Below are positions 1 through 9,022 of a stretch of 9,022 bases of DNA, piece after piece; the stretch's first letter is position 1; each line of letters opens with the position of its first letter. The DNA lies in assembly GCA_031288595.1 (NCBI GenBank), contig JAITRB010000009.1, positions 1-9,022 on the forward strand, written 5' to 3'. The position numbers were made by a program, and so were the translations under genes. The DNA comes from Puniceicoccales bacterium. GTDB lineage: Bacteria > Verrucomicrobiota > Verrucomicrobiia > Opitutales > JAIRLG01. The notes beneath the pieces are model-generated. The model did no database searches, was not told the origin of the DNA, and saw nothing but the letters and a program-made list of their open reading frames with translations.

Positions 1-744
1 GGATTCCTCTTCTTCGATCAGGGCATGTCGACGGCGCGGCGGGCACTGCTGGCTACCTATAAGGCAAACCGGCCGGCGATGCCGGAGGCACTGCGGCAGC
101 AGTTGCCGATTCTGCAGGAGCTCTCGCAACAGATGGGCTATGCGCTTCGGATTCAGGAGGGAACGGAGGCCGATGACCTCATCGCATCGACGCTGGCGCA
201 CCGGGCTTCACCCGAATGCGAGTGCTTCGTCGCGAGCGCGGACAAGGATTTGGCCCAGTGCGTCGCGGAGGGCATCATTCTCCTGCGGCCTTCGTCGCAG
301 CCCCAGTCTCCCTGGTCGTACTTCGATGCGGAGGCGATACGGCGGCACTGGGGAATCGCGCCGGCCCAAATGCCCGATTATCTCGCACTGGTCGGCGATG
401 CATCGGACAATATCCCAGGAGTCCCAGGGGTTGGGCCCAAAACAGCCCAGAGATGGCTCCAGGCATTCGCTTCCATCGAGGGAATCTATCAAAACTTGGA
501 GAAGCTCATCCCGAGCCGTTTCGGTCACATTTTGCCCCAGCAGCGGGAACTCCTGGCCCTCAACCGTCAATTGATCTGTCTCGACCGTCGGCTGCCCGTT
601 CCCGACGAATGTCCGCCGCTGGAGCCCCGTGTCGATGCGCTGATCGCCCTGCTGGACCGACTGGGTCTCCAAACCTTGGTCGCCCAGGCACGCCGGCGCT
701 ATGGATCCGAGGCCCAGCAGGGGCAATTATCGCTCGCCCTCTAG
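1..744 (+). CDS. 5'-3' exonuclease (FEN / DNA Pol I N-terminal domain family), 5'-truncated by the window edge; apparently stand-alone
   Basis: Frame 1 is open from nt 1 (GFLFFDQG precedes the listed Met at 25), so the gene starts upstream of the window. Family-typical motifs: YKANRPAMPEAL, EADDLIAS, and the H3TH motif LVGDASDNIPGVPGVGPKTA. Stop at 742-744 with no polymerase domain following. Confidence 0.85.
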   Translation, partial: GFLFFDQGMSTARRALLATYKANRPAMPEALRQQLPILQELSQQMGYALRIQEGTEADDLIASTLAHRASPECECFVASADKDLAQCVAEGIILLRPSSQPQSPWSYFDAEAIRRHWGIAPAQMPDYLALVGDASDNIPGVPGVGPKTAQRWLQAFASIEGIYQNLEKLIPSRFGHILPQQRELLALNRQLICLDRRLPVPDECPPLEPRVDALIALLDRLGLQTLVAQARRRYGSEAQQGQLSLAL

Positions 745-775
745 GCGATGTTCGGCTTGCTCAGGTCAAGCCTAG

Positions 776-800
776 CCAGGGGAGTCTTTTCCCCTCCGGC
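776..800. repeat. Fragment of the long hairpin of the four-way-junction repeat family
   Basis: ccaggggagtcttttcccctccggc closely matches the reverse complement of the 905-930 hairpin core (ccggaggggaagtctttcccctccgg). It forms its own hairpin, AGGGGA(778-783)/TCCCCT(790-795). Confidence 0.45.
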
Positions 801-850
801 ACCACCGTGAGGGAAGAGGGAATTTCGAGGGCACTTGGGCGCTCGCTGTG

Positions 851-951
851 GCCGCTGTCTTTGGCTCCCTTCAGGAGCGGCCCGCGGAGCGGGCCCCAGC
901 AGCGCCGGAGGGGAAAGACTTCCCCTCCGGCGCTGCTGCAAAGACAGCGGC
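851..951 (-). repeat. Four-way-junction structured repeat, copy 1 (inverted relative to copy at 5629-5737)
   Basis: Perfect 13-bp terminal inverted repeat GCCGCTGTCTTTG (851-863) / CAAAGACAGCGGC (939-951). It encloses three hairpins: 864-878 (5 bp), 879-895 (7 bp, loop GGA) and 897-938 (perfect 19 bp, loop AGAC). The reverse complement aligns along its full length with 5629-5737. Confidence 0.85.
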
Positions 952-1050
952 AAGCCCCAGCGCAGTTCCTAAGCCTAAGCTCCTTCTGGTCCCAGGCGAC
1001 AAGAGCTGGTCTTGACAAACAATCCGAAGGCTTAGGCAGAGAAAAGCGGC

Positions 1051-3702
1051 ATGAGAGAAAGTTCACGAGATAGAGAGCATCGGCTCAACCCAAGGGCCCG
1101 GGTGATCGGGCTCAGCCGGCGGCCAGCCATTGCTAAACTCATCACCTGCAGCTTTGTCCTCATCCTCTCCAGCGCCCAAGCCGAGTGGCCTAGCCCCGTG
1201 CTCCGATACGTGGAGCGGCAGTCTTCGGTGGAGACTGGATTCTGGAGAAGGGCAGGGCTTGCCTCGCCCAGCCAGGCCTGCTTCTCTCCAGCCCTTCAGC
1301 TCTCCTCAGCGGAAAAAGAGATGGAAGAGGCCCTCTGCGACCTCATCCCGCTGAAAGGCCCATGGCCTGCAGCAGCTGTGCAGAACGAGCTCCCGAGAAT
1401 CCTGACATGGCTGGAGTCGCTCGTCTCTAGCCCAGAACAGCTCGATGCCCAGGAAAGGTTCCTCCGCGATTCGCTGCCACTCCTCCGAATCCTCACCCGC
1501 CTGTTCCATTTCGAGGAACGTTCTATTCTGAATGTCCGGCAAGTCGAAAGGGCGAGAATCCTGGCCTCGACCGAGCGCATTCCCAACGATCTCGGGGTTC
1601 TGGATGCCCTTCGGAATCTACTTCCGCTCTGGCTCGCGCACTACCGCGATCAAAGGACTCGATGGAAGGTCCAGATGCCAGTGCTCTCGGAGGCCTTCCA
1701 GCAAGCACTCTGGGCCTCTCATCCCTCCGCCGATGCCCGGGCCTTCATCCCACTAGAGGAGTGGTACATCCGCCTCCACAGCCTGCAGGAAGCCGTAATC
1801 GATCCGCTCGCCACCGCCCAGGGCCACCGCCGATCCCCTCTCCGCAAAACCCATCGCCGGCTAGCCCTGAAGCAAGAGGCAGGCAAGTACCACCAGGTAT
1901 GCCTGGTTCAGGACGAAGGGGGGATGGACTGGGTGCTCAAGGTCTTCCATTTCCAGGAACACGCGGGTGGCTACGTCAGCAGCGGTGTTCTGCCGCAGCT
2001 GTCCCACCTCATCGGGCGCAACGTTTTCAGTTACCGGCTGGGCGAGTGGCTTTGCCCGGGCATGCCTGTCCCGACATGGCCCTGCCTCATACCGGCCAGC
2101 GGCGATGGCAGAACCCTTGCCTTGGGCATACGGATGGCCAGGGCCCGCGGTCTGCCCTTCAGCCACTACTGGAAGCCGAGGGACACAACCCATCCCCAGT
2201 TGGCCCGAATAGAAGTCCACCGCAGGCGGTGCCTGTTCCTTCTGAACCAGATCGCGGGAGAAGGAGCCGAGGGCAACATTTCCCGTGCTTCCTCATCCAG
2301 CAGAGAGCTGCAGGAGCTTTTCATCTCCGACGACGATGTGGTTCAAGAAGGTCTGCGAAAGCGCTGGCAGGGTCTCGGGGGCGATTTGAGGCGCTCGCTC
2401 TTGAAGGACTGGAAGAGCTACGTTACCGAGATGAAGGCCCTGCGGCAGCGGCTCCGGCCGGGAGCGCTCGTCCGCAACCTCATCCGCCTACAGTGGCTGG
2501 ACGCACTGCTCTTCCAGGGCGACCGCCATTACTGTAATTTCTACATCGAGCCAGAGGCCTCCTACAGGCTCCAGCTGATCGACCAGGATCAGTGCCTCGG
2601 GCCCCTTGATCCCCGGGCCTCCTGCGACGTCTTTCCCCAAAAAGACTTCGAGCGGCAGATGAGCGTGCGGACTGAGAGCTACTTCGGCCATGGCGGCTCG
2701 AGCGTCGCCGAATGCTGGGCCCGCCATGGGGGAAAGTCCATCGCCCCCCTGCCCCCGTTCATCGACGCCTCGACGGCCTTCCATTTCAGATGTTGCCGCT
2801 CGGAGAGCCTGGAAGCCCTGGCCGATGGCTGGCTCCTTCCCCTGGAAATCGCCGCGCTCCGGCGGCGCCTGCGGGCCCTGCAGCGATTCCTCACGCAGTT
2901 GCGGCGGCACGGACGGGTATTGCCCGATGACCCAAATGTCTGGGAAAATCCCAAAATCCTCGCCCAACTGGAACGGCCCGATCCTGCTCTGCCCGACCCC
3001 ATTTTTCCTAACCCCATGCGCAAGCGGGATATCGACCGAGCTGAGGATGCCTGTGAGGCCCGGATGCTCACCTGTTACCAGAAGCTCTGTCGAGAACGGG
3101 AGCGAGAGTGGAGGATATTCCTAAACCTCTCGGTCTGCTTTGACGTCCTGCGGAACCTGAAGGTCGGAGCCGGGGCCGATGCTGAGGGGAGGGATAGGGG
3201 GTTGTGGGGCGATGGCCCGGCTGCGGAGACGCGGGCAGGATGCCCGCGGCTCCGCAGACCCCGGCCTTTTTCTCGAAAAAGGCCGACTTTCTCCGAAAGG
3301 GGCCATCGCCCCAAAAATCAAAACCAATCCCCTAAACCCATGCTTGACGCCGCCCTTCAAAGCACTAGCCCTTCCGTACATCCATGCTCAAGACCAAAAA
3401 ATCCATCGCCAAGCGCTTCAAGTTCACAGGCAGGGGCAAGGTGCTGCGCCGCAGCGCTGGGTACCGCCACTTCCTGCGCAACCGGAGCGTCAAGCAGTGC
3501 CGGGCCGCCCATCGGGACCATCCGGTCTCGGCGGGATTCCGGAAGCAGATTCTGCGGGCGGTGGCGGTCGGACTTTAGGATATTTTCTGATCCACCGCGG
3601 GGAAAAGCGACAGGTCGGATCTCACAGCAGGACGAAAGGAGAAGCACATGCCAAGAGCGACCCATGCAGGAGCAACCCATCGGCGCCGAAGAAGGATGCT
3701 GA
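1051..3702 (+). CDS. Large hypothetical protein with an N-terminal Sec/Tat-like signal peptide and a central PI3K/PI4K-like atypical-kinase signature; the last ~500 nt of the ORF are probably not genuine coding sequence
   Basis: 883-codon ORF with high third-position GC up to about nt 3150. N-terminus LSRRPAIAKLITCSFVLILSSAQA|EWP is an RR-containing n-region, a hydrophobic core and an AxA site. Alternative starts are GTG 1102 or ATG 1321; the latter is preceded by GGAAAAAGAG. Motifs: WVLK (K at 1939-1941), WLDALLFQGDRHYCNFYI (2518-2538 core) and LIDQDQ (2578-2589). After ~3160 the translation becomes low-complexity (RPRPFSRKRP...) and overlaps a structured repeat, rpmI and the rplT start. Confidence 0.6.
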   Translation: MRESSRDREHRLNPRARVIGLSRRPAIAKLITCSFVLILSSAQAEWPSPVLRYVERQSSVETGFWRRAGLASPSQACFSPALQLSSAEKEMEEALCDLIPLKGPWPAAAVQNELPRILTWLESLVSSPEQLDAQERFLRDSLPLLRILTRLFHFEERSILNVRQVERARILASTERIPNDLGVLDALRNLLPLWLAHYRDQRTRWKVQMPVLSEAFQQALWASHPSADARAFIPLEEWYIRLHSLQEAVIDPLATAQGHRRSPLRKTHRRLALKQEAGKYHQVCLVQDEGGMDWVLKVFHFQEHAGGYVSSGVLPQLSHLIGRNVFSYRLGEWLCPGMPVPTWPCLIPASGDGRTLALGIRMARARGLPFSHYWKPRDTTHPQLARIEVHRRRCLFLLNQIAGEGAEGNISRASSSSRELQELFISDDDVVQEGLRKRWQGLGGDLRRSLLKDWKSYVTEMKALRQRLRPGALVRNLIRLQWLDALLFQGDRHYCNFYIEPEASYRLQLIDQDQCLGPLDPRASCDVFPQKDFERQMSVRTESYFGHGGSSVAECWARHGGKSIAPLPPFIDASTAFHFRCCRSESLEALADGWLLPLEIAALRRRLRALQRFLTQLRRHGRVLPDDPNVWENPKILAQLERPDPALPDPIFPNPMRKRDIDRAEDACEARMLTCYQKLCREREREWRIFLNLSVCFDVLRNLKVGAGADAEGRDRGLWGDGPAAETRAGCPRLRRPRPFSRKRPTFSERGHRPKNQNQSPKPMLDAALQSTSPSVHPCSRPKNPSPSASSSQAGARCCAAALGTATSCATGASSSAGPPIGTIRSRRDSGSRFCGRWRSDFRIFSDPPRGKATGRISQQDERRSTCQERPMQEQPIGAEEGC
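3206..3312 (+). repeat. Four-way-junction structured element, sequence-diverged member (E3), 71 nt upstream of rpmI
   Basis: Perfect 12-bp outer stem GGGGCGATGGCC (3206-3217) / GGCCATCGCCCC (3301-3312). It encloses hairpin 3221-3257 (16 bp, one A/G mismatch, loop GGA), hairpin 3263-3284 (GGCCTTTTT/AAAAAGGCC, loop CTCG) and hairpin 3287-3299 (CTTTC/GAAAG). The order long-medium-short matches 5629-5737. The 5' flank GATAGGGGG-TTGTGGGGCGATGGC resembles the copy-2 flank GATAGGGGCAGGGTATTTTGTGGGACATGGC. Confidence 0.6.
3384..3578 (+). CDS. rpmI: 50S ribosomal protein L35
   Basis: 64 aa: MLKTKKSIAKRFKFTGRGKVLRRSAGYRHFLRNRS... This is the typical basic L35 sequence (KRFK.TG.GK), placed immediately upstream of rplT. 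An in-frame stop at 3366-3368 fixes ATG 3384 as the start. No Shine-Dalgarno sequence is visible. Confidence 0.9.
   Translation: MLKTKKSIAKRFKFTGRGKVLRRSAGYRHFLRNRSVKQCRAAHRDHPVSAGFRKQILRAVAVGL
3635..3641 (+). promoter_or_regulatory. Shine-Dalgarno sequence for rplT
   Basis: AAAGGAG lies 6 nt upstream of ATG 3648. Confidence 0.7.
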
Positions 3703-4031
3703 AGGCGACCCGTGGCTATTTCGGAAACAAGTCCCGCCTCTTCCGCTATGCTCGAGAGGCCTGGCGGCGGGCCGGTCAGTTCGCCTACCGCGATCGGCGC
3801 AAGCGGAAGACAGAGATGCGCCAGCTATGGATCGTGCGCCTCAACGCGGCCTGCCGGCCCTTTGGCTTGCCCTATTGCCGCTTCATTGCCGGCCTGAAGG
3901 CCGCCCAGATCCAACTGGATCGCAAGTCCCTGAGCGAACTGGCCATCCACGACCCAGAGGCCTTCTCCCAGGTGATCACCCGGGTACGGGAGGTCCTGCC
4001 GGGAATCACTCCCGCGGCTGAGGCCCGGTGA
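3648..4031 (+). CDS. rplT: 50S ribosomal protein L20
   Basis: 127 aa containing KATRGYFGNKSRLFRYAREAWRRAGQFAYRDRRKRKTEMRQLWIVRLNAA, a canonical L20 signature. Strong RBS and conserved position after rpmI. Confidence 0.95.
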   Translation: MPRATHAGATHRRRRRMLKATRGYFGNKSRLFRYAREAWRRAGQFAYRDRRKRKTEMRQLWIVRLNAACRPFGLPYCRFIAGLKAAQIQLDRKSLSELAIHDPEAFSQVITRVREVLPGITPAAEAR

Positions 4032-4174
4032 GATGGGGACGGAGCCAGGCTCAGTCCCAGAGTTCCGCGAGCCATTAGGTTCAAGAGCGGACGGACCGGC
4101 AAGGGCAGGAAAAATCTCCTTCCGTCCGGAGCATATCTCAGTTCTTCTTTCCCGAATCCGAGCAACTCATTGTC

Positions 4175-5521
4175 ATGTCCGATGAAGATGAGCGCCGGAA
4201 GGCCCTGATCGAGCACCTCTTCGCCCAGGCAGAGCGCAACCGGGTGGTCGGACAAGCAGAGGAAAGGGAGGGTCATCCTCGGACCCAGGCGCTCTCCTCC
4301 TTTTCGGAATCGCCGAGCGCATCGTCTTCCCCGGAAGACTTGGAGGAAGAGCTGAGAAGGCGACTTCAGCAGTTGGGCATAGATGAGGGTCTGCGCCAGT
4401 CGCTGGCGGAAGTCATGGCCTCGCTGACACCCGGCTCGCCGCTCCAGGGGATCATCGCCCAGTATTTGAAAGAATATCCCATGGATGAACTCATTTCCCA
4501 GGCCCAGCAGGAGCTAGCCAGCGTCCATAAGCGTTCGGATTGGGAGAGCTGCAAGGCGCGTTTCCTAGGCCCTCAGGGACCGCTACGCGCACTCGTCAAA
4601 AACATCCAGGCCCAGGCACCGGAGCAGCGGCCGGCCTTCGGCCAGAGGATCAATGCGATCAAGACTGCTCTCGAAGAGCTGTTCAGCCGCAAGCGGCAGG
4701 AACTGGAGCGGGAAGCCAGGCAGCGTCAGCTCCCGCCTCCCATCGATATCACGCTCCGCCCACGGTTGGCAGCTAATGGCACCCTCCATCCCCTGACACG
4801 CCTGCGCCGGCGCATCGACGCGATTTTCCAGCGCTTGGGCTATACCCTTACCGAGGGCAGTGAGATCGAAACCGAATGGTTCTGCTTCGACGCTCTGAAC
4901 ACGCCGCCCGAGCATCCGGCCCGGGATGAGCAGGATACCTTCTACCTTCCGCGGGATCTGGAGCTCGGCAACGTCCCTCGCCGGCGGGAGGGTGAGAGGG
5001 GTGAGCGCTACATCCTGCGTTCCCAAACCTCGACAGTGCAGATCCGCACGATGCTGGCGGAAAATCCGCCCCTCCGCATCGTCTCCCCAGGCCGTGTCTT
5101 CCGGCGAGATACGAACGACGCAACCCACAGCGCGAACTTCCATCAGTATGAGGGGCTCTACGTTGACCGAAAGCTCACGGTGGCTGACCTGAAGAACACG
5201 CTCTTCTTCTTCCTCCAGGAGCTTTTGGGAGCCCCTCTGCAGATGCGCCTGCGGCCGAGCTTTTTCCCCTTCACCGAGCCTAGTTTCGAGCTGGATATCT
5301 GCTCTCCCTCGCTGGGCAAGCTCAGCGGACAGTGGGTGGAGATCATCGGTTGCGGCTTGGTCGATCCGGATGTATTTCGGGCCGTGGACTACGATCCGGA
5401 GCAATGGACAGGCTTTGCCTTCGCCCTAGGCTTAGAGCGCGTCGCGATGTTCTTCTACGGCGTCGACGATATCCGGCACTTTTACCGCAACGACTGGCGA
5501 TTCCTTCAACAGTTCGCCTGA
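4175..5521 (+). CDS. pheS: Phenylalanine--tRNA ligase alpha subunit, with an apparent ~100-aa N-terminal extension (alternative canonical-length start at ATG 4481)
   Basis: Class II aaRS motifs: GRVFRRDTNDATHSANFHQYEGL (motif 2 region) and GFAFALGLERVAMF (motif 3). A PheS-typical N-terminal coiled coil begins at MDELISQAQQEL (4481). Codons 4175-4480 keep the same frame and a GC-rich third position. Confidence 0.9.
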   Translation: MSDEDERRKALIEHLFAQAERNRVVGQAEEREGHPRTQALSSFSESPSASSSPEDLEEELRRRLQQLGIDEGLRQSLAEVMASLTPGSPLQGIIAQYLKEYPMDELISQAQQELASVHKRSDWESCKARFLGPQGPLRALVKNIQAQAPEQRPAFGQRINAIKTALEELFSRKRQELEREARQRQLPPPIDITLRPRLAANGTLHPLTRLRRRIDAIFQRLGYTLTEGSEIETEWFCFDALNTPPEHPARDEQDTFYLPRDLELGNVPRRREGERGERYILRSQTSTVQIRTMLAENPPLRIVSPGRVFRRDTNDATHSANFHQYEGLYVDRKLTVADLKNTLFFFLQELLGAPLQMRLRPSFFPFTEPSFELDICSPSLGKLSGQWVEIIGCGLVDPDVFRAVDYDPEQWTGFAFALGLERVAMFFYGVDDIRHFYRNDWRFLQQFA

Positions 5522-5628
5522 AAACTTGCCCTATTTTTCCGCCGGTCGTGCAAAGCCAAAGGTCCGCATCGGACGGACATTGCCGAAGCCAGTTCTGTCA
5601 GATAGGGGCAGGGTATTTTGTGGGACAT

Positions 5629-5737
5629 GGCGCTGTCTTTGCAACGCAGGAGGGGAAAGGGCCCGAAGGCTCCTTTCCCCTCCTGCGTTGCAGGCCCGCC
5701 CCACGGGCCGCTCCCGAAGGGAGCCAAAGACAGCGCC
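5629..5737 (+). repeat. Four-way-junction structured repeat, copy 2
   Basis: Perfect 13-bp terminal inverted repeat GGCGCTGTCTTTG (5629-5641) / CAAAGACAGCGCC (5725-5737). It encloses a long hairpin 5642-5690 (19 bp plus a GCC/GGC extension), a hairpin 5693-5709 (GGCCCG/CGGGCC) and a hairpin 5710-5724 (GCTCCC/GGGAGC). It is homologous to the reverse complement of 851-951. Confidence 0.85.
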
Positions 5738-5901
5738 AACAAGCCTACAGGCCCCAAGCATTCACCCAGCTGCCAAGACCTAGAGCCGTCGCTCCTGATC
5801 ACTCTCACTTCCACCTATCCGGAGCCGATGTTCTCGGAGGGGGTGGCCGTGCAGCGGAATCGCTGTTGACGCAGGGAGAATATTTTGCTCCCTGACAGGG
5901 C

Positions 5902-6351
5902 ATGTATTGGCATCAGTATGGCTGCTGTGCTTTGGCCCTCCTCTGGTCATCGGGACTCGGAGCGGAACGCTTGTATCCGAAGTGGCGGACCCTAGTAATC
6001 CATGACTACCAGTCGCGCCTACCGATCAGCCCGACCCTCAGCGACGAATTGGTCGGGATACTCCGCCAGCTGAAGCCCCGGGGACGAAGTTCGCAGGACT
6101 ACTGGCTCTTCGATGCTTACGGTCATCCGATGATCGCGCTGGATCTCAGCCGATTTCCACTACCCAGGGACGGACTCGGGAGCTTGCTCGGCCGGCGGGT
6201 GCGGCTTCGCGGCGAGCGGATGGAGTCCCTATCCATGTTGAGGGTCGCCTTCATCCAACGGGAAGAGGATGAAATTCCTTCCGTTCCGAACAAGAGCAGA
6301 CCTTTGGGTGCATGCAAGCCTCCTTCTCCCACGTCGCCCTCCGGACATTGA
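5902..6351 (+). CDS. Hypothetical small protein with an N-terminal signal-peptide-like segment
   Basis: 149-aa ORF with a hydrophobic N-terminus CCALALLWSSGLGA|E and mostly G/C third positions. I recognise no family. The 3' end overlaps the next CDS by 40 nt. Confidence 0.45.
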   Translation: MYWHQYGCCALALLWSSGLGAERLYPKWRTLVIHDYQSRLPISPTLSDELVGILRQLKPRGRSSQDYWLFDAYGHPMIALDLSRFPLPRDGLGSLLGRRVRLRGERMESLSMLRVAFIQREEDEIPSVPNKSRPLGACKPPSPTSPSGH

Positions 6352-7364
6352 GCCATGTCCTGCCGCCGGAGATCAAGACCTCGGCAGCACTGGAGGAGGA
6401 ACTAGCCGAAACTTACCGGCGCTTCCATCTCTCGGCGGGGCGCCTGGAGCTGATGAGCGGTATCCGCGAGCGTCGCCTCTGGCCGCCCGGGATGCTCGCT
6501 TCGCAAGCGAGCGGCTGCGCCGCTCAGGCCCTTTTCAAGGGCCATCCCGGGCTGGCCCGGGACGAAATCGACCTCTTGATCCACGCCGCCGTCTGCCGTG
6601 ACCGCCTGGAGCCCGCCACTGCCTCCTACGTCCATAAGCTCCTCTCGCTTTCTCCTCAGGCCCAAGCCTTCGATCTATCCAATGCCTGTCTGGGGGTGCT
6701 CAATGCCCTGTGGCTGGCGGCCAGCCAGATTGAAAGTGGGCAGATCCGATCAGCCCTCATCGTTTCCGGCGAGAACAGCCGACCGCTGCTGGAATCGACG
6801 CTGCGGGAATCGAGGAGCCTCTCCCTCGACCGGCAGCAGTTCAAGCGCCTTTTTGCCAACCTGAGCCTCGGCTCCGGGGCCGTCGCCCTGCTCCTGTCTC
6901 CCTGCTCCGCCGCACCGGAGGCCCCCCGTCTCGTCGCCGCCTCCGCCCTGGCGGACACCGAGGCCTGCCGGCTCTGCGAGGGTGGGGTAGCCGCAGATGC
7001 CTCCTGGCAGATGCTGACTGAATCCGAGGCCCTGCTGCAGGCTGGCATCGACCTGGCCCGACGCAACTGGCACAATTTTCTCCGGCTGACCCGCTGGGAA
7101 CCCAGCACCATCCAGCACTTTCTCACCCACCAGGTAGGCCAACGCCACCGGACCTTGCTCTATGGAGCCCTCGGGCTGGAAATTTCAAAGGATTTCTCGA
7201 CCTTTCCCTTCCTGGGCAATACCGGTTCCTCCGCGCTGCCCATGACTCTCTCCATCGCGTGGGAACAAGGGCGCTTCCATCCCGGAGATCGCGTAGCGCT
7301 TCTCGGCATTGGCAGCGGATTGCATTCCATAATCCTGGGTCTCGAGTTTCCGCAGCTCCCGTAA
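6312..7364 (+). CDS. 3-oxoacyl-ACP synthase III (KAS III / FabH-like, thiolase-fold condensing enzyme) family protein
   Basis: 350 aa. Catalytic-triad contexts typical of KAS III: FDLSNACLG (Cys), FLTHQVG (His) and GNTGSSALPMTL (Asn), plus SGIRERR near the N-terminus. The HQVG/ACLG variants suggest a FabH paralogue rather than housekeeping FabH. Confidence 0.85.
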   Translation: MQASFSHVALRTLSHVLPPEIKTSAALEEELAETYRRFHLSAGRLELMSGIRERRLWPPGMLASQASGCAAQALFKGHPGLARDEIDLLIHAAVCRDRLEPATASYVHKLLSLSPQAQAFDLSNACLGVLNALWLAASQIESGQIRSALIVSGENSRPLLESTLRESRSLSLDRQQFKRLFANLSLGSGAVALLLSPCSAAPEAPRLVAASALADTEACRLCEGGVAADASWQMLTESEALLQAGIDLARRNWHNFLRLTRWEPSTIQHFLTHQVGQRHRTLLYGALGLEISKDFSTFPFLGNTGSSALPMTLSIAWEQGRFHPGDRVALLGIGSGLHSIILGLEFPQLP

Positions 7365-7382
7365 AAGCACCGAAAATTCGGT
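7362..7382 (-). terminator. Weak candidate intrinsic terminator downstream of tRNA-Pro (minus strand)
   Basis: On the minus strand, hairpin ACCGA-ATTT-TCGGT (7369-7382) is followed by GCTTTTAC. The stem is only 5 bp, and the T-tract overlaps the KAS III stop codon. Confidence 0.3.
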
Positions 7383-7412
7383 ATTCCTCCCATCATTTTC
7401 ACAAAAATTTCC

Positions 7413-7489
7413 TGGTCGGGATGACTGGATTCGAACCAGCGACATCTACGTCCCGAACGTAGCGCTCTGCCAGGCTGAGCTACATCCCG
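7413..7489 (-). tRNA. tRNA-Pro (anticodon CGG), CCA encoded
   Basis: Reverse complement: CGGGATGTAGCTCAGCCTGGCAGAGCGCTACGTTCGGGACGTAGATGTCGCTGGTTCGAATCCAGTCATCCCGACCA. Acceptor stem CGGGATG/CATCCCG, anticodon stem CTACG/CGTAG with loop TTCGGGA, T-loop TTCGAAT. Confidence 0.92.
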
Positions 7490-7508
7490 CGCATGGATAT
7501 GAACGGCC

Positions 7509-7594
7509 TGGTGCCCAGGGCGGGACTCGAACCCGCACGTCCTTACGGACAAAGGATTTTAAGTCCTCAGCGTCTACCATTCCGCCACCAGGGC
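7509..7594 (-). tRNA. tRNA-Leu (anticodon UAA), long variable arm, CCA encoded
   Basis: Reverse complement: GCCCTGGTGGCGGAATGGTAGACGCTGAGGACTTAAAATCCTTTGTCCGTAAGGACGTGCGGGTTCGAGTCCCGCCCTGGGCACCA. Anticodon loop CTTAAAA, 15-nt variable arm, T-arm GCGGG-TTCGAGT-CCCGC. The acceptor stem has one U5:U68 mismatch. Confidence 0.9.
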
Positions 7595-8142
7595 AAAGCC
7601 ACTCGGCTCCGCATCCTGCGCTTTTCCCCATCCTGACAAGCCTTTTCGCGGCCATCGCCTGCAAGGGATATCCCATCGATTTTGCGAAACAGCGGCCGAG
7701 GAGATTTCCCTCAGCGGCCTTCAGCGGCTGAGTCCTTGCTCAGAAGCCGTCGATACGGTAAATGCTGGCACGCATGCCGTGATCCACGCATGAAAGTCCT
7801 CATCTTCCATCTATCCGGTGGGCCAAGCGCTCCTCTATCCGGGCATATCCATCGAAAAACAGGGGTTCATCATCAGGCCCCCCAGAGGCAGGTTCGCTGA
7901 TCGCCGAATGTTCCGTGAATCCCGATAGGAGTGCTCTGCTGCCCATCCGGCTCTTTTTTCCTCTCAATCCCTTGCCGATGGGATTCCTCTTTTGCTACCC
8001 CGCAAGCGCAGGCATAGTCCCCATTATACCCCGGGCAGAGTCCAGGCATGAAACCATTTTTGAGAGAATTTGCATATAGGTGAGCTATAGCTGATGGCCT
8101 CCTCTATAGGCGCATCTTCCTCTTCCACAGGCACACTTCCCT

Positions 8143-8571
8143 TCACAGGCCTATCTCTCCCCAATTTTCTTGATACACTCGACTTCCAGCTGAACCACAT
8201 CCAAGACGATGCACTTGTGCCTCATCCGCAGGCTTACAGAAGGCATCCGCCCTCATCAAATCCGCATCAGCTACCCGCTGTTGTTCCGCTACCATCAATG
8301 CTCTTCCCCGGTAGGCAACTGCCTCCGAATAAGGGCGAGACTCAGCTCCCAAACCCAGGGAATGGATGAGAGCGCAGAGGACGGCCTGGGGATAGTCCTC
8401 TCTCGGGCGATTTAAACTATCGGGAGATAGCCTAACCCATTCACAAGAGCCTTCGAATCCTTCTGCTGAGTCTCGGGCGGAAACGGCGAAAGGAAGGGCC
8501 CCTTTGCCGAACCGAGACGCCTCGTCATAGAGAGGGGCCAAGGCCTCGGGCTGCCGGAGGAGAATCGCCAC
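8143..8571 (-). CDS. Hypothetical protein (GTG start)
   Basis: 142-codon ORF with a protein-like composition and GC-rich third positions in its first half. I recognise no family. The antisense ORF 8094-8369 is low-complexity and less plausible. Confidence 0.4.
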   Translation of the reverse strand: MAILLRQPEALAPLYDEASRFGKGALPFAVSARDSAEGFEGSCEWVRLSPDSLNRPREDYPQAVLCALIHSLGLGAESRPYSEAVAYRGRALMVAEQQRVADADLMRADAFCKPADEAQVHRLGCGSAGSRVYQENWGEIGL

Positions 8572-8621
8572 CGGAATGGGATCCTTCAGCGGAGTGCAGG
8601 AAGAGTAGGGACAGGGTCATC

Positions 8622-8849
8622 CTATTCCAAAGGATAGAAGTGGAAGTCCAGCAGGACCAGGCGGGCTGAAAGGTCGGCATCGATCCCATTGCCGGTATTT
8701 TCGGCATTCAGGTCTTCCGGCAGCAGCCGACACCAGGCCGTTTTCGGAAATTCCACACGGCGCCGGTAGCGCTCCAGCATTCGGGCCGCCGCAGCTCTTG
8801 CGCCCAGCTCACGGTCCTTCTGTTCCGCCTCGTAGGGGAGGAGCGACAA
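8622..8849 (-). CDS. Hypothetical small protein (TTG start), or the 5' fragment of a disrupted gene
   Basis: 75-codon ORF ending 50 nt upstream of the 8571 ORF, in a different frame. Its frame is open back to a TAA at 8934-8936, but no ATG/GTG lies upstream of the TTG. Confidence 0.3.
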   Translation of the reverse strand: MSLLPYEAEQKDRELGARAAAARMLERYRRRVEFPKTAWCRLLPEDLNAENTGNGIDADLSARLVLLDFHFYPLE

Positions 8850-9022
8850 AACATGCCTTTTAAACGAACGAACTCCCGGAAGGAAGCGCGCATCCCGGGT
8901 TATCTCGATATTCGGGGCTCCCTTGTTAGGAAATTAGTCCTCGCCATCTGTAAACCGAGTAGGTCTCCCCAATACAAGGATATACCAGCAGCTTACCTTC
9001 CCCAGTTCGAACTGATGGACTC

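Follow-up and report, generated by a model that had tools for sequence, protein, structure and literature searches.

How can a hairpin change its sequence, and even its length, while its two arms stay perfectly matched? This question is raised by a repeat that is found twice, in opposite orientations, in the intergenic DNA of a Puniceicoccales bacterium, within a stretch of 9,022 nucleotides (contig JAITRB010000009.1, positions 1 to 9,022, forward strand) that we will call the window. A preliminary description, made from the letters of the window, compared the two copies and reported that their differences are mirrored on both arms of every stem. It proposed that the fold is conserved while the sequence drifts, and that this speaks for selection on the fold or for hairpin-templated repair rather than for a neutral duplicated segment. 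Here we examine how far this description holds once the relatives of the two copies are taken into account, at which level, DNA or RNA, the structure is likely to matter, and which of the known families of dispersed repeats these elements resemble.

Anatomy of the two copies

Both copies have a 13-bp outer stem (GSCGCTGTCTTTG / CAAAGACAGCGSC) that surrounds three hairpins, one long, one medium and one short (Table 1). The medium hairpin can be written for both of them as GGCCCG(C)...(G)CGGGCC and the short one as GCTCC(C)-GAA-(G)GGAGC. The helices abut, with only 0-2 unpaired bases at the junction, and the predicted fold is thus a perfect four-way junction. When either strand of the two copies is folded as RNA, the energies lie between -99.6 and -102 kcal/mol (z = -8.5 to -12.3), and when they are folded as DNA they reach about -57.5 kcal/mol (z = -11.4 to -12.4). 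None of 200 shuffled sequences matches the fold energy of the copies.

Table 1. Coordinates of the elements, of their parts and of related features. Positions are those of the window unless an L number precedes them.
Feature	Position	Strand	Description
Copy 1	851-951	-	Complete family-A element; orientation opposite to copy 2; covariance-model score 89 bits; minus-strand layout GCCGCTGTCTTTG; CAGCAGCGCCGGAGGGGAA...TTCCCCTCCGGCGCTGCTG; G; GGCCCGC-TCC-GCGGGCC; GCTCC-TGAAG-GGAGC; CAAAGACAGCGGC
Copy 1, outer arms	851-863 and 939-951	+	
Copy 1, short hairpin	864-878	+	
Copy 1, medium hairpin	879-895	+	
Copy 1, long hairpin	897-938	+	
Copy 1, bin38 ortholog	L025 894-998		
Copy 2	5629-5737	+	Complete family-A element; long-medium-short order; predicted four-way junction; layout GGCGCTGTCTTTG; CAACGCAGGAGGGGAAAGG...CCTTTCCCCTCCTGCGTTG; CA; GGCCCG-CCCCA-CGGGCC; GCTCCC-GAA-GGGAGC; CAAAGACAGCGCC
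Copy 2, outer stem, 5' arm	5629-5641	+	GGCGCTGTCTTTG; partner 5725-5737 (CAAAGACAGCGCC)
Copy 2, outer stem, 3' arm	5725-5737	+	CAAAGACAGCGCC
Copy 2, long hairpin	5642-5690	+	Hypervariable
Copy 2, medium hairpin	5693-5709	+	GGCCCG-CCCCA-CGGGCC; 7th pair is a C·A mismatch
Copy 2, short hairpin	5710-5724	+	GCTCCC-GAA-GGGAGC; C-GAA-G triloop
Copy 2, bin38 ortholog	L013 3160-3267		
Third element	3205-3313	+	Family B framework; outer stem TGGGGCGATGGCCC/GGGCCATCGCCCCA; sequence unrelated to copies 1 and 2; same plan as family A
Third element, long hairpin	3219-3260		
Third element, medium hairpin	3262-3285		
Third element, short hairpin	3287-3299		
Third element, bin38 ortholog	L013 6024-6147		
Small junction within FabH-like ORF	6485-6552	+	Four-way junction; outer stem GCCCGGGATG/CATCCCGGGC; three short hairpins
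Partial copy of the copy 1 long-hairpin tip	778-800	+	AGGGGAGTCTTTTCCCCTCCGGC; inverted repeat I7; solitary, 50 nt upstream of copy 1
G-quadruplex-like runs, examples	L056 2228-2347; L050 2612-2734; L022 2139-2165; L010 357-497; L044 3034-3058		
TGAAA...TTTCA motif, examples	L021 6676; L042 2904; L057 1886; L061 31		

The mirrored differences that had been noticed between the two copies are found again in the outer and long stems. The compensatory swap in the outer stem is real (G2C / G-2C, copy 2 versus copy 1), and at the base of the long hairpin copy 2 has CAACGCA/TGCGTTG where copy 1 has CAGCAGCGCC/GGCGCTGCTG, both versions being exactly self-complementary. The difference of 3 nt in the length of this hairpin is likewise present on both arms. 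Mirroring had been claimed for every stem, however, and the medium and short stems depart from it by one uncompensated loop-closing transition each, namely C·A in copy 2 (medium hairpin) and T·G in copy 1 (short hairpin); these transitions account for what had been read as changed loops. Mirroring is therefore the rule, yet it is not absolute. The weak homology that had been seen beyond the inverted repeat is real as well, and it reflects a feature of the whole family: in the 25 nt that adjoin each of about 96 elements, the 5' side is GT-rich (63%) and the 3' side AC-rich (61%) whichever strand is read, as at 5604-5628 and 5738-5762 of the window. Some elements are also framed by TTTT...AAAA.

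An assembly artefact was considered and rejected, because an independent Logan assembly, 99.98% identical to the window, contains the same elements, as do three separate metagenome-assembled genomes. The window and the Logan contig L001 (SRR14710895) differ by 1 base in 4188. It sits in the apex of copy 2's long hairpin (5662-5668, GGGCCC versus GGGGCC), where the change turns a bulged tip into a GCC-GAA-GGC tip.

A superfamily of junction elements in termite-gut Puniceicoccales

The outer-stem pattern GCTGTCTTTG-N60-90-CAAAGACAGC was scanned against a collection of species-representative genomes and returned 60 loci. Three Puniceicoccales metagenome-assembled genomes (isolates Pcl387_bin38, Pcl387_bin136 and Ct408_bin121, Pcl387 being a lower-termite gut sample) account for 47 of them, and the other 13 are scattered chance matches. 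The junction fold is shared by all 47 Puniceicoccales matches and is absent from the 13 chance matches. A structure-based scan of those loci gave 97 non-redundant elements that are built on several outer-stem frameworks: NNNGCTGTCTTTG (family A, 45 copies), GGSGCGATGGCC (the type of the third window element), and also GCCGCCTTTG, GCTGGCTTTG, GCCGGCTTT, GCTGCCTTTG and ATCGCCTTT. The order of the hairpins (long, medium, short) is fixed and the junctions are tight in all of these frameworks.

The 45 family-A copies were used to build a covariance model, which recovers about 127 distinct sites from 333 kb of DNA of the three Puniceicoccales genomes and none from 13 unrelated control loci. These sites are all intergenic, save for one case in a coding region, and in some contigs nearly every spacer contains one to three elements. 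In the window, the model scores copy 2 at 75.9 bits (E = 4e-16), and it recovers the third element from structure alone (21.9 bits, E = 0.001). The two-copy view from which we started was right in treating copies 1 and 2 as related, but too narrow, as they belong to a superfamily of more than 100 copies on several frameworks, of which one further element stands in the window itself.

The elements match no Rfam family. A scan of the window against Rfam (E ≤ 1) gave only two tRNAs and weak miRNA-like hairpins, and the matches of the elements to miRNA precursors reach 21-27 bits where the gathering cut-offs are 70 or more. Among viral contigs, the outer-stem pattern had a single chance match, without the junction fold. 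A metagenome scan with the medium-plus-short hairpin pattern, which is too strict even for the two window copies, gave ten chance matches and no members, so that the lack of members in that collection carries little weight. The family is apparently an undescribed, lineage-restricted superfamily of intergenic repeats of 80-130 nt in a small clade of Puniceicoccales (Verrucomicrobiota) from lower-termite guts.

Identity between elements never exceeds 95%, and it attains 90% in just 13 pairs, which indicates an old family rather than a recent burst. Members of a subfamily have the same long-hairpin core at unlinked loci, so the long arm is inherited when an element is copied; the possibility that the long hairpin is made anew at each transposition was rejected for this reason.

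The persistence of individual copies can be followed in a related genome. The window is syntenic with contig JAITKE010000064 (bin38), with a coding identity of 82-87%, but the remaining intergenic DNA can hardly be aligned. Copy 1, copy 2 and the third element nonetheless each have a bin38 counterpart that belongs to the same subfamily and agrees in location and orientation (Table 1). The frameworks of these orthologs are nearly identical, their long hairpins differ by mostly mirrored changes, and the short loop of copy 2 is GAA where that of its ortholog is TTC. Two bin38 elements, L013 4951-5054 (between rplT and pheS) and L025 653-749, have no counterpart in the window, so copies have been gained or lost on that time scale.

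The covariance model also matches the window at 6482-6556 (22.6 bits, E = 7e-4), within a FabH-like ORF (6312-7364). The junction found there is small (68 nt) and carries C-TNC-G loops, that is, triloops closed by C-G. It is 91% identical to an intergenic segment of the related genome (L013 3061-3147), and related copies occupy two further spacers; the other loci of this group are L013 2102-2169, L050 4709-4787 and L056 5097-5173. The FabH-like segment has a normal length by comparison with FabH of E. coli, and the junction is thus not an insertion there. Either a gene fragment seeded the element family, or an element converted this segment of the FabH gene.

The elements also affect gene calling. 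A large ORF (1051-3702), which has no Pfam match, is free of stops before the third element and reads through both this element and rpmI to 3702; its ortholog in the related genome ends about 15 nt ahead of the element. Spurious ORFs are created by the elements as well, for example at 761-1066 and 5506-5814 on the minus strand. The 722-aa protein (1051-3216) that is flanked by copy 1 and the third element starts with a signal-like segment, and contains a GDRHxxN...IDQD motif that is reminiscent of the catalytic loop of PI3K/PI4K-type kinases.

Covariation and mirrored change

The covariation was quantified in the 45 family-A copies, with a MAFFT alignment that was not fitted to the structure and with 35 base pairs specified. 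Standard pairs occupy 96.0% of the cells, versus 78.0 ± 0.6% with shuffled partners. Two-sided changes are found in 283 cells, versus 82 ± 8 in the shuffles, and none of 500 shuffles reaches the observed value. Pairing drops to 37-48% when the partners are slid by 1-3 columns. Covariation is found in 22 of the 35 pairs, and what had been described from two copies thus extends, with statistical support, to many more. Together with the orthologs that are retained in barely alignable spacers, it supports the view that the fold is conserved while the sequence drifts, and that the copies are not a neutral duplicate.

The constraint is not the same along the element. Eight pairs of the outer-stem core GCTGTCTT are invariant in 45 of 45 copies and the two pairs that adjoin the junction vary in one copy each, whereas the three outermost pairs are freely variable; the latter still remain complementary, and covary. 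The medium and short stems exist as a few discrete alleles. One-sided intermediates of the G·U type are nearly absent: the short-hairpin pair 95-107, for instance, is A-U in 30 copies and C-G in 15, with nothing between.

The same is seen when related copies are compared two by two (pairs that are 75% identical or more). Double changes that compensate each other are more numerous than single ones in the long hairpin (114 versus 62), in the short one (101 versus 31) and in the medium one (22 versus 13). In 203 of 243 related pairs the two long hairpins are of unequal length, yet their arms are still matched, and blocks of several bases are replaced on both arms at once, such as GAG/CTC versus CCT/AGG. 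Apart from the loop-closing pairs of copies 1 and 2 mentioned above, the uncompensated changes amount to about 4% of the long-hairpin positions. Template switching during replication has been shown both to create hairpins and to maintain them, and the footprints that it leaves there are several compensatory changes at once, extended stems and loops that are completely inverted (PMC8794818). The elements are like the products of such template-switch (quasipalindrome) mutation in their compensatory blocks, stem extension, mirrored indels and inverted loops (PMC8794818). Template switching is a process and not a family, however, and, as judged from these patterns, it would have acted here on a single type of element in its hundreds of copies.

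Structure at the level of DNA or of RNA

Covariation of this kind is also what one would expect from an RNA-level cis element, such as a terminator, a barrier to 3' exonucleases that protects the mRNA, an RNase III processing site or a small RNA, in which selection would act on the RNA fold. The RNA folds are very stable, with z down to about -12, all three intergenic elements of the window sit between co-oriented genes, and copies are retained at orthologous sites. REP elements, moreover, act at the RNA level in enterobacteria. Yet we consider this explanation unlikely, for reasons that come from the mismatches, from the genomic context and from the loops.

An RNA under selection should keep G·U pairs and lose A·C pairs. 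The mismatches of the long stem show no such excess, with 28 G·T versus 25 A·C on the element strand, and 13 versus 13 in the sense transcript of the flanking co-oriented genes. The gene context was taken from a heuristic gene caller scored by codon usage, which recovers the known genes of the window. Elements occupy 17 of 31 divergent spacers, 15 of 29 convergent ones and 33 of 100 tandem ones, and divergent, promoter-side spacers are thus at least as occupied as convergent ones. Both orientations relative to transcription are found (24 same, 18 opposite). No U-tract is found 3' of the stem, where the AC-rich flanks contain 15% T, and the T-rich side is the 5' side of the element; the elements therefore have neither the U-run nor the orientation towards gene 3' ends that characterize intrinsic terminators. 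The strand of the GNA loop was also compared with the gene strand, with counts of 38 versus 31 and 55 versus 37, neither of which is convincing.

The loops are of a DNA type. Among the 176 triloops of the medium and short hairpins, 136 (77%) have the form GNA or TNC, against an expectation of 12% from the loop composition, and 171 are closed by C-G. They are thus C-GNA-G triloops and their complements, and not the GNRA or UNCG tetraloops of RNA. Both forms of these loops are present in near-equal numbers. The ratio of GNA to TNC triloops is 39:36 for short hairpins, 31:30 for medium hairpins and 18:16 for long hairpins. Individual triplets and their reverse complements behave in the same way, in the short hairpin (GAA 23 and TTC 14; TCC 15 and GGA 12; TTT 11 and AAA 5) as in the medium one (GCA 15 and TGC 11; TCC 13 and GGA 8), and this near-equality is significant in a permutation test (p < 0.0002). 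Small inversions of hairpin loops are known in chloroplast DNA. The loop types of the medium and short hairpins are correlated within elements (Fisher p = 0.009), which may reflect subfamily descent only. The C-GNA-G hairpin (GCGNAGC, CCGAAGG) is an extraordinarily stable DNA mini-hairpin, which exceeds its RNA counterpart in stability and is found in single-stranded DNA origins (PMC13037366).

Taken together, the symmetry of the mismatches, the loop flips, the type of the loops, the matched arms, the context, the flanks and the lack of an Rfam match point to a structure at the DNA level, and not at the RNA level. The elements that lie in co-transcribed spacers also fold as RNA, and could have an effect on mRNA stability there.

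Two further motifs recur in the elements (Table 1). G-quadruplex-like runs (GGGTGGGTGGGG, complement CCCACCCACCC) are found in enlarged medium-hairpin loops and in element flanks. The motif TGAAA...TTTCA, often as ATGAAAA/TTTTCAT, is found near the tip of otherwise unrelated long hairpins in 15 of the 97 elements, and could be either a shared binding site or the remnant of a common ancestor. A role of the long-hairpin arms as guides was considered and rejected, the matches outside the parsed elements being other unparsed hairpins or elements, and not genes.

Mobility and relation to known systems

The elements are high-copy extragenic palindromic repeats with terminal inverted repeats, formed by the perfect 13-bp outer stem, and this description brings to mind several known systems. 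One could see them as classical MITEs, that is, as deletion derivatives of an insertion sequence that are moved by a DDE transposase acting on the 13-bp terminal repeats, the hairpins being incidental. The perfect terminal repeats with their core of about 10 bp (8 pairs invariant, 2 nearly so) would suit such an origin, as would the size of about 100 bp, the non-coding, multicopy and intergenic nature of the elements, and the presence or absence of individual copies in related genomes. The elements are indeed like the bacterial MITEs Correia, ERIC, RPE, BOX and SMAG in being intergenic and non-autonomous, about 100 bp long, with terminal inverted repeats and a predicted structure, and like RPE in their occasional occurrence inside genes. 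However, target-site duplications of 2-6 nt at or near the ends (offsets -3 to +1) are at or below chance in 96 elements, which argues against DDE-type transposition and fits single-strand or structure-specific mechanisms of the REP/REPIN kind. Unlike MITEs, the family also has no recent identical copies, the 95% ceiling on identity excluding a recent burst. Its interior is not incidental either, since the stems covary strongly, the loops flip, and the order and the tight junctions are fixed across unrelated frameworks. In the sampled part of the genomes, no partner insertion sequence (whose ends would be GGSGCTGTCTTTG) was seen. A MITE origin in this classical sense is thus very improbable. 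A tblastn search for Y1 transposases with IS200/IS605 TnpA and RAYT-like queries, a weak test, had no match in about 425 kb of partial genomes.

The likeness to the REP, BIME and REPIN elements of Enterobacteria and Pseudomonas concerns their high copy number, their extragenic palindromes, their vertical persistence and the folding of single-stranded DNA; REP and REPIN elements also have no target-site duplications, form subfamilies within a genome and are retained for long. REPs are single hairpins of 20-40 bp and REPINs are one long hairpin, whereas the present elements, at about 100 nt, form a four-way junction with three internal hairpins, one of which is a hypervariable arm. GTAG REPs occur also in Opitutus terrae, the REP tag being GTAG or CGTC on a single 20-40-bp hairpin (PMC3733652). 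This GTAG/CGTC tag is absent from the outer stems of the family (GCTGTCTTTG, GCCGCCTTTG, GCGATGGCC and similar).

Integron attC sites, which are folded single-stranded DNA of 57-141 nt, are similarly defined by structure over sequence, with a variable central palindrome between conserved ends. The RYYYAAC/GTTRRRY cores of attC are absent, the element ends being NNNGCTGTCTTTG / CAAAGACAGCNNN, and unlike attC sites the elements do not form same-orientation cassette arrays next to an integrase but lie beside housekeeping genes, in both orientations. Two systems from outside bacterial chromosomes were compared as well. The inverted terminal repeats of parvoviruses (AAV) consist of a stem around small palindromes, with inner hairpins that exist in flip and flop forms, and mitochondrial double-hairpin elements, with which GC clusters were compared too, are small and mobile and undergo compensatory changes. 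The present elements differ from both in that they are internal to the chromosome, instead of forming the ends of a linear replicon, and four-way rather than three-way or two-hairpin, and they show no sign of rolling-hairpin replication. The family resembles REP/REPIN elements and MITEs in its lifestyle, attC sites in being defined by structure, and parvoviral terminal repeats in its flip/flop states. The defining features of these systems, as far as they were tested, are not those of the family.

Finally, the elements might be immobile DNA-structural sites of the host (a cruciform or priming signal, or a site for a nucleoid or junction protein) that were spread by recombination, as the occurrence of C-GNA-G mini-hairpins, including CCGAAGG, in primase-recognised single-stranded origins (PMC13037366), the symmetry of the structure on both strands, the retention at orthologous sites and the near one element per spacer of some contigs might suggest; we find this highly doubtful, because subfamilies that share long-hairpin sequence across unlinked loci and copies whose presence differs between genomes imply copying to new sites, and no orientation bias linked to replication direction is detectable on these short contigs.

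A proposed DNA-level explanation for the matched arms

The best reading of the family is that of a REP/MITE-like, structure-defined repeat. To explain its evolution we favor, with a probability of roughly 60%, a combination of DNA-level self-templating of the arms with selection for foldability, the elements being spread or retained through a putative recognition protein. They would work and evolve as DNA, either as folded single-stranded DNA or as an extruded cruciform, and not as RNA. Template switching within the hairpin, or hairpin-templated correction, during DNA synthesis would be what mainly keeps the arms complementary: a substitution or an indel in one arm would thereby be transferred to the opposite arm, a loop would occasionally be inverted, and selection would remove the copies that have lost their foldability. 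The invariant core of the outer stem and the conserved medium and short stems would form the probable recognition surface of the putative protein, which may be a host DNA-binding protein, or else a transposase or recombinase that is specific for the structure and spreads the elements. The long arm, for its part, would need only to be a hairpin.

Of the two mechanisms put forward in the preliminary description, it is hairpin-templated repair that gains specific support, from the loop flips, the matched arm lengths, the mirrored blocks and the lack of a G·U excess. The patterns expected from template switching overlap with those expected from ordinary compensatory selection, and the conservation of the frameworks could be due, without any function, to gene conversion among copies.

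A bolder interpretation, which we regard as rather improbable, would make of the elements a structure-specified DNA replicator or cis-signal new to bacteria, in which a module that forms a perfect four-way junction, as single-stranded DNA or as a cruciform, is recognised by its shape and a short core. The recogniser could then be a junction-specific enzyme (RuvC-like/IS110-type or HUH) or a priming protein, and the self-templating of the arms would let the long hairpin drift freely in both sequence and length.

Implications

The intergenic spacers of this clade are largely filled with elements, and this is relevant to genome assembly, to gene calling (given the spurious and read-through ORFs) and to any search for the enzyme behind their spread. 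The family brings a new architecture to the known dispersed repeats of bacteria, that of a perfect four-way junction with DNA mini-hairpin loops. It may also help to answer an old problem, which is how perfect stems stay perfect while their sequence changes. With more than 100 paralogs, to which orthologs are added, and four independent helices in each of them, mirrored substitutions, indels and loop inversions can be counted directly, and, as RNA-level selection is apparently not the driver, template switching becomes testable as a cause of compensatory change. If the replicator or cis-signal interpretation were true, the family would be a natural system of compensatory evolution driven by mutation, and not by selection alone.
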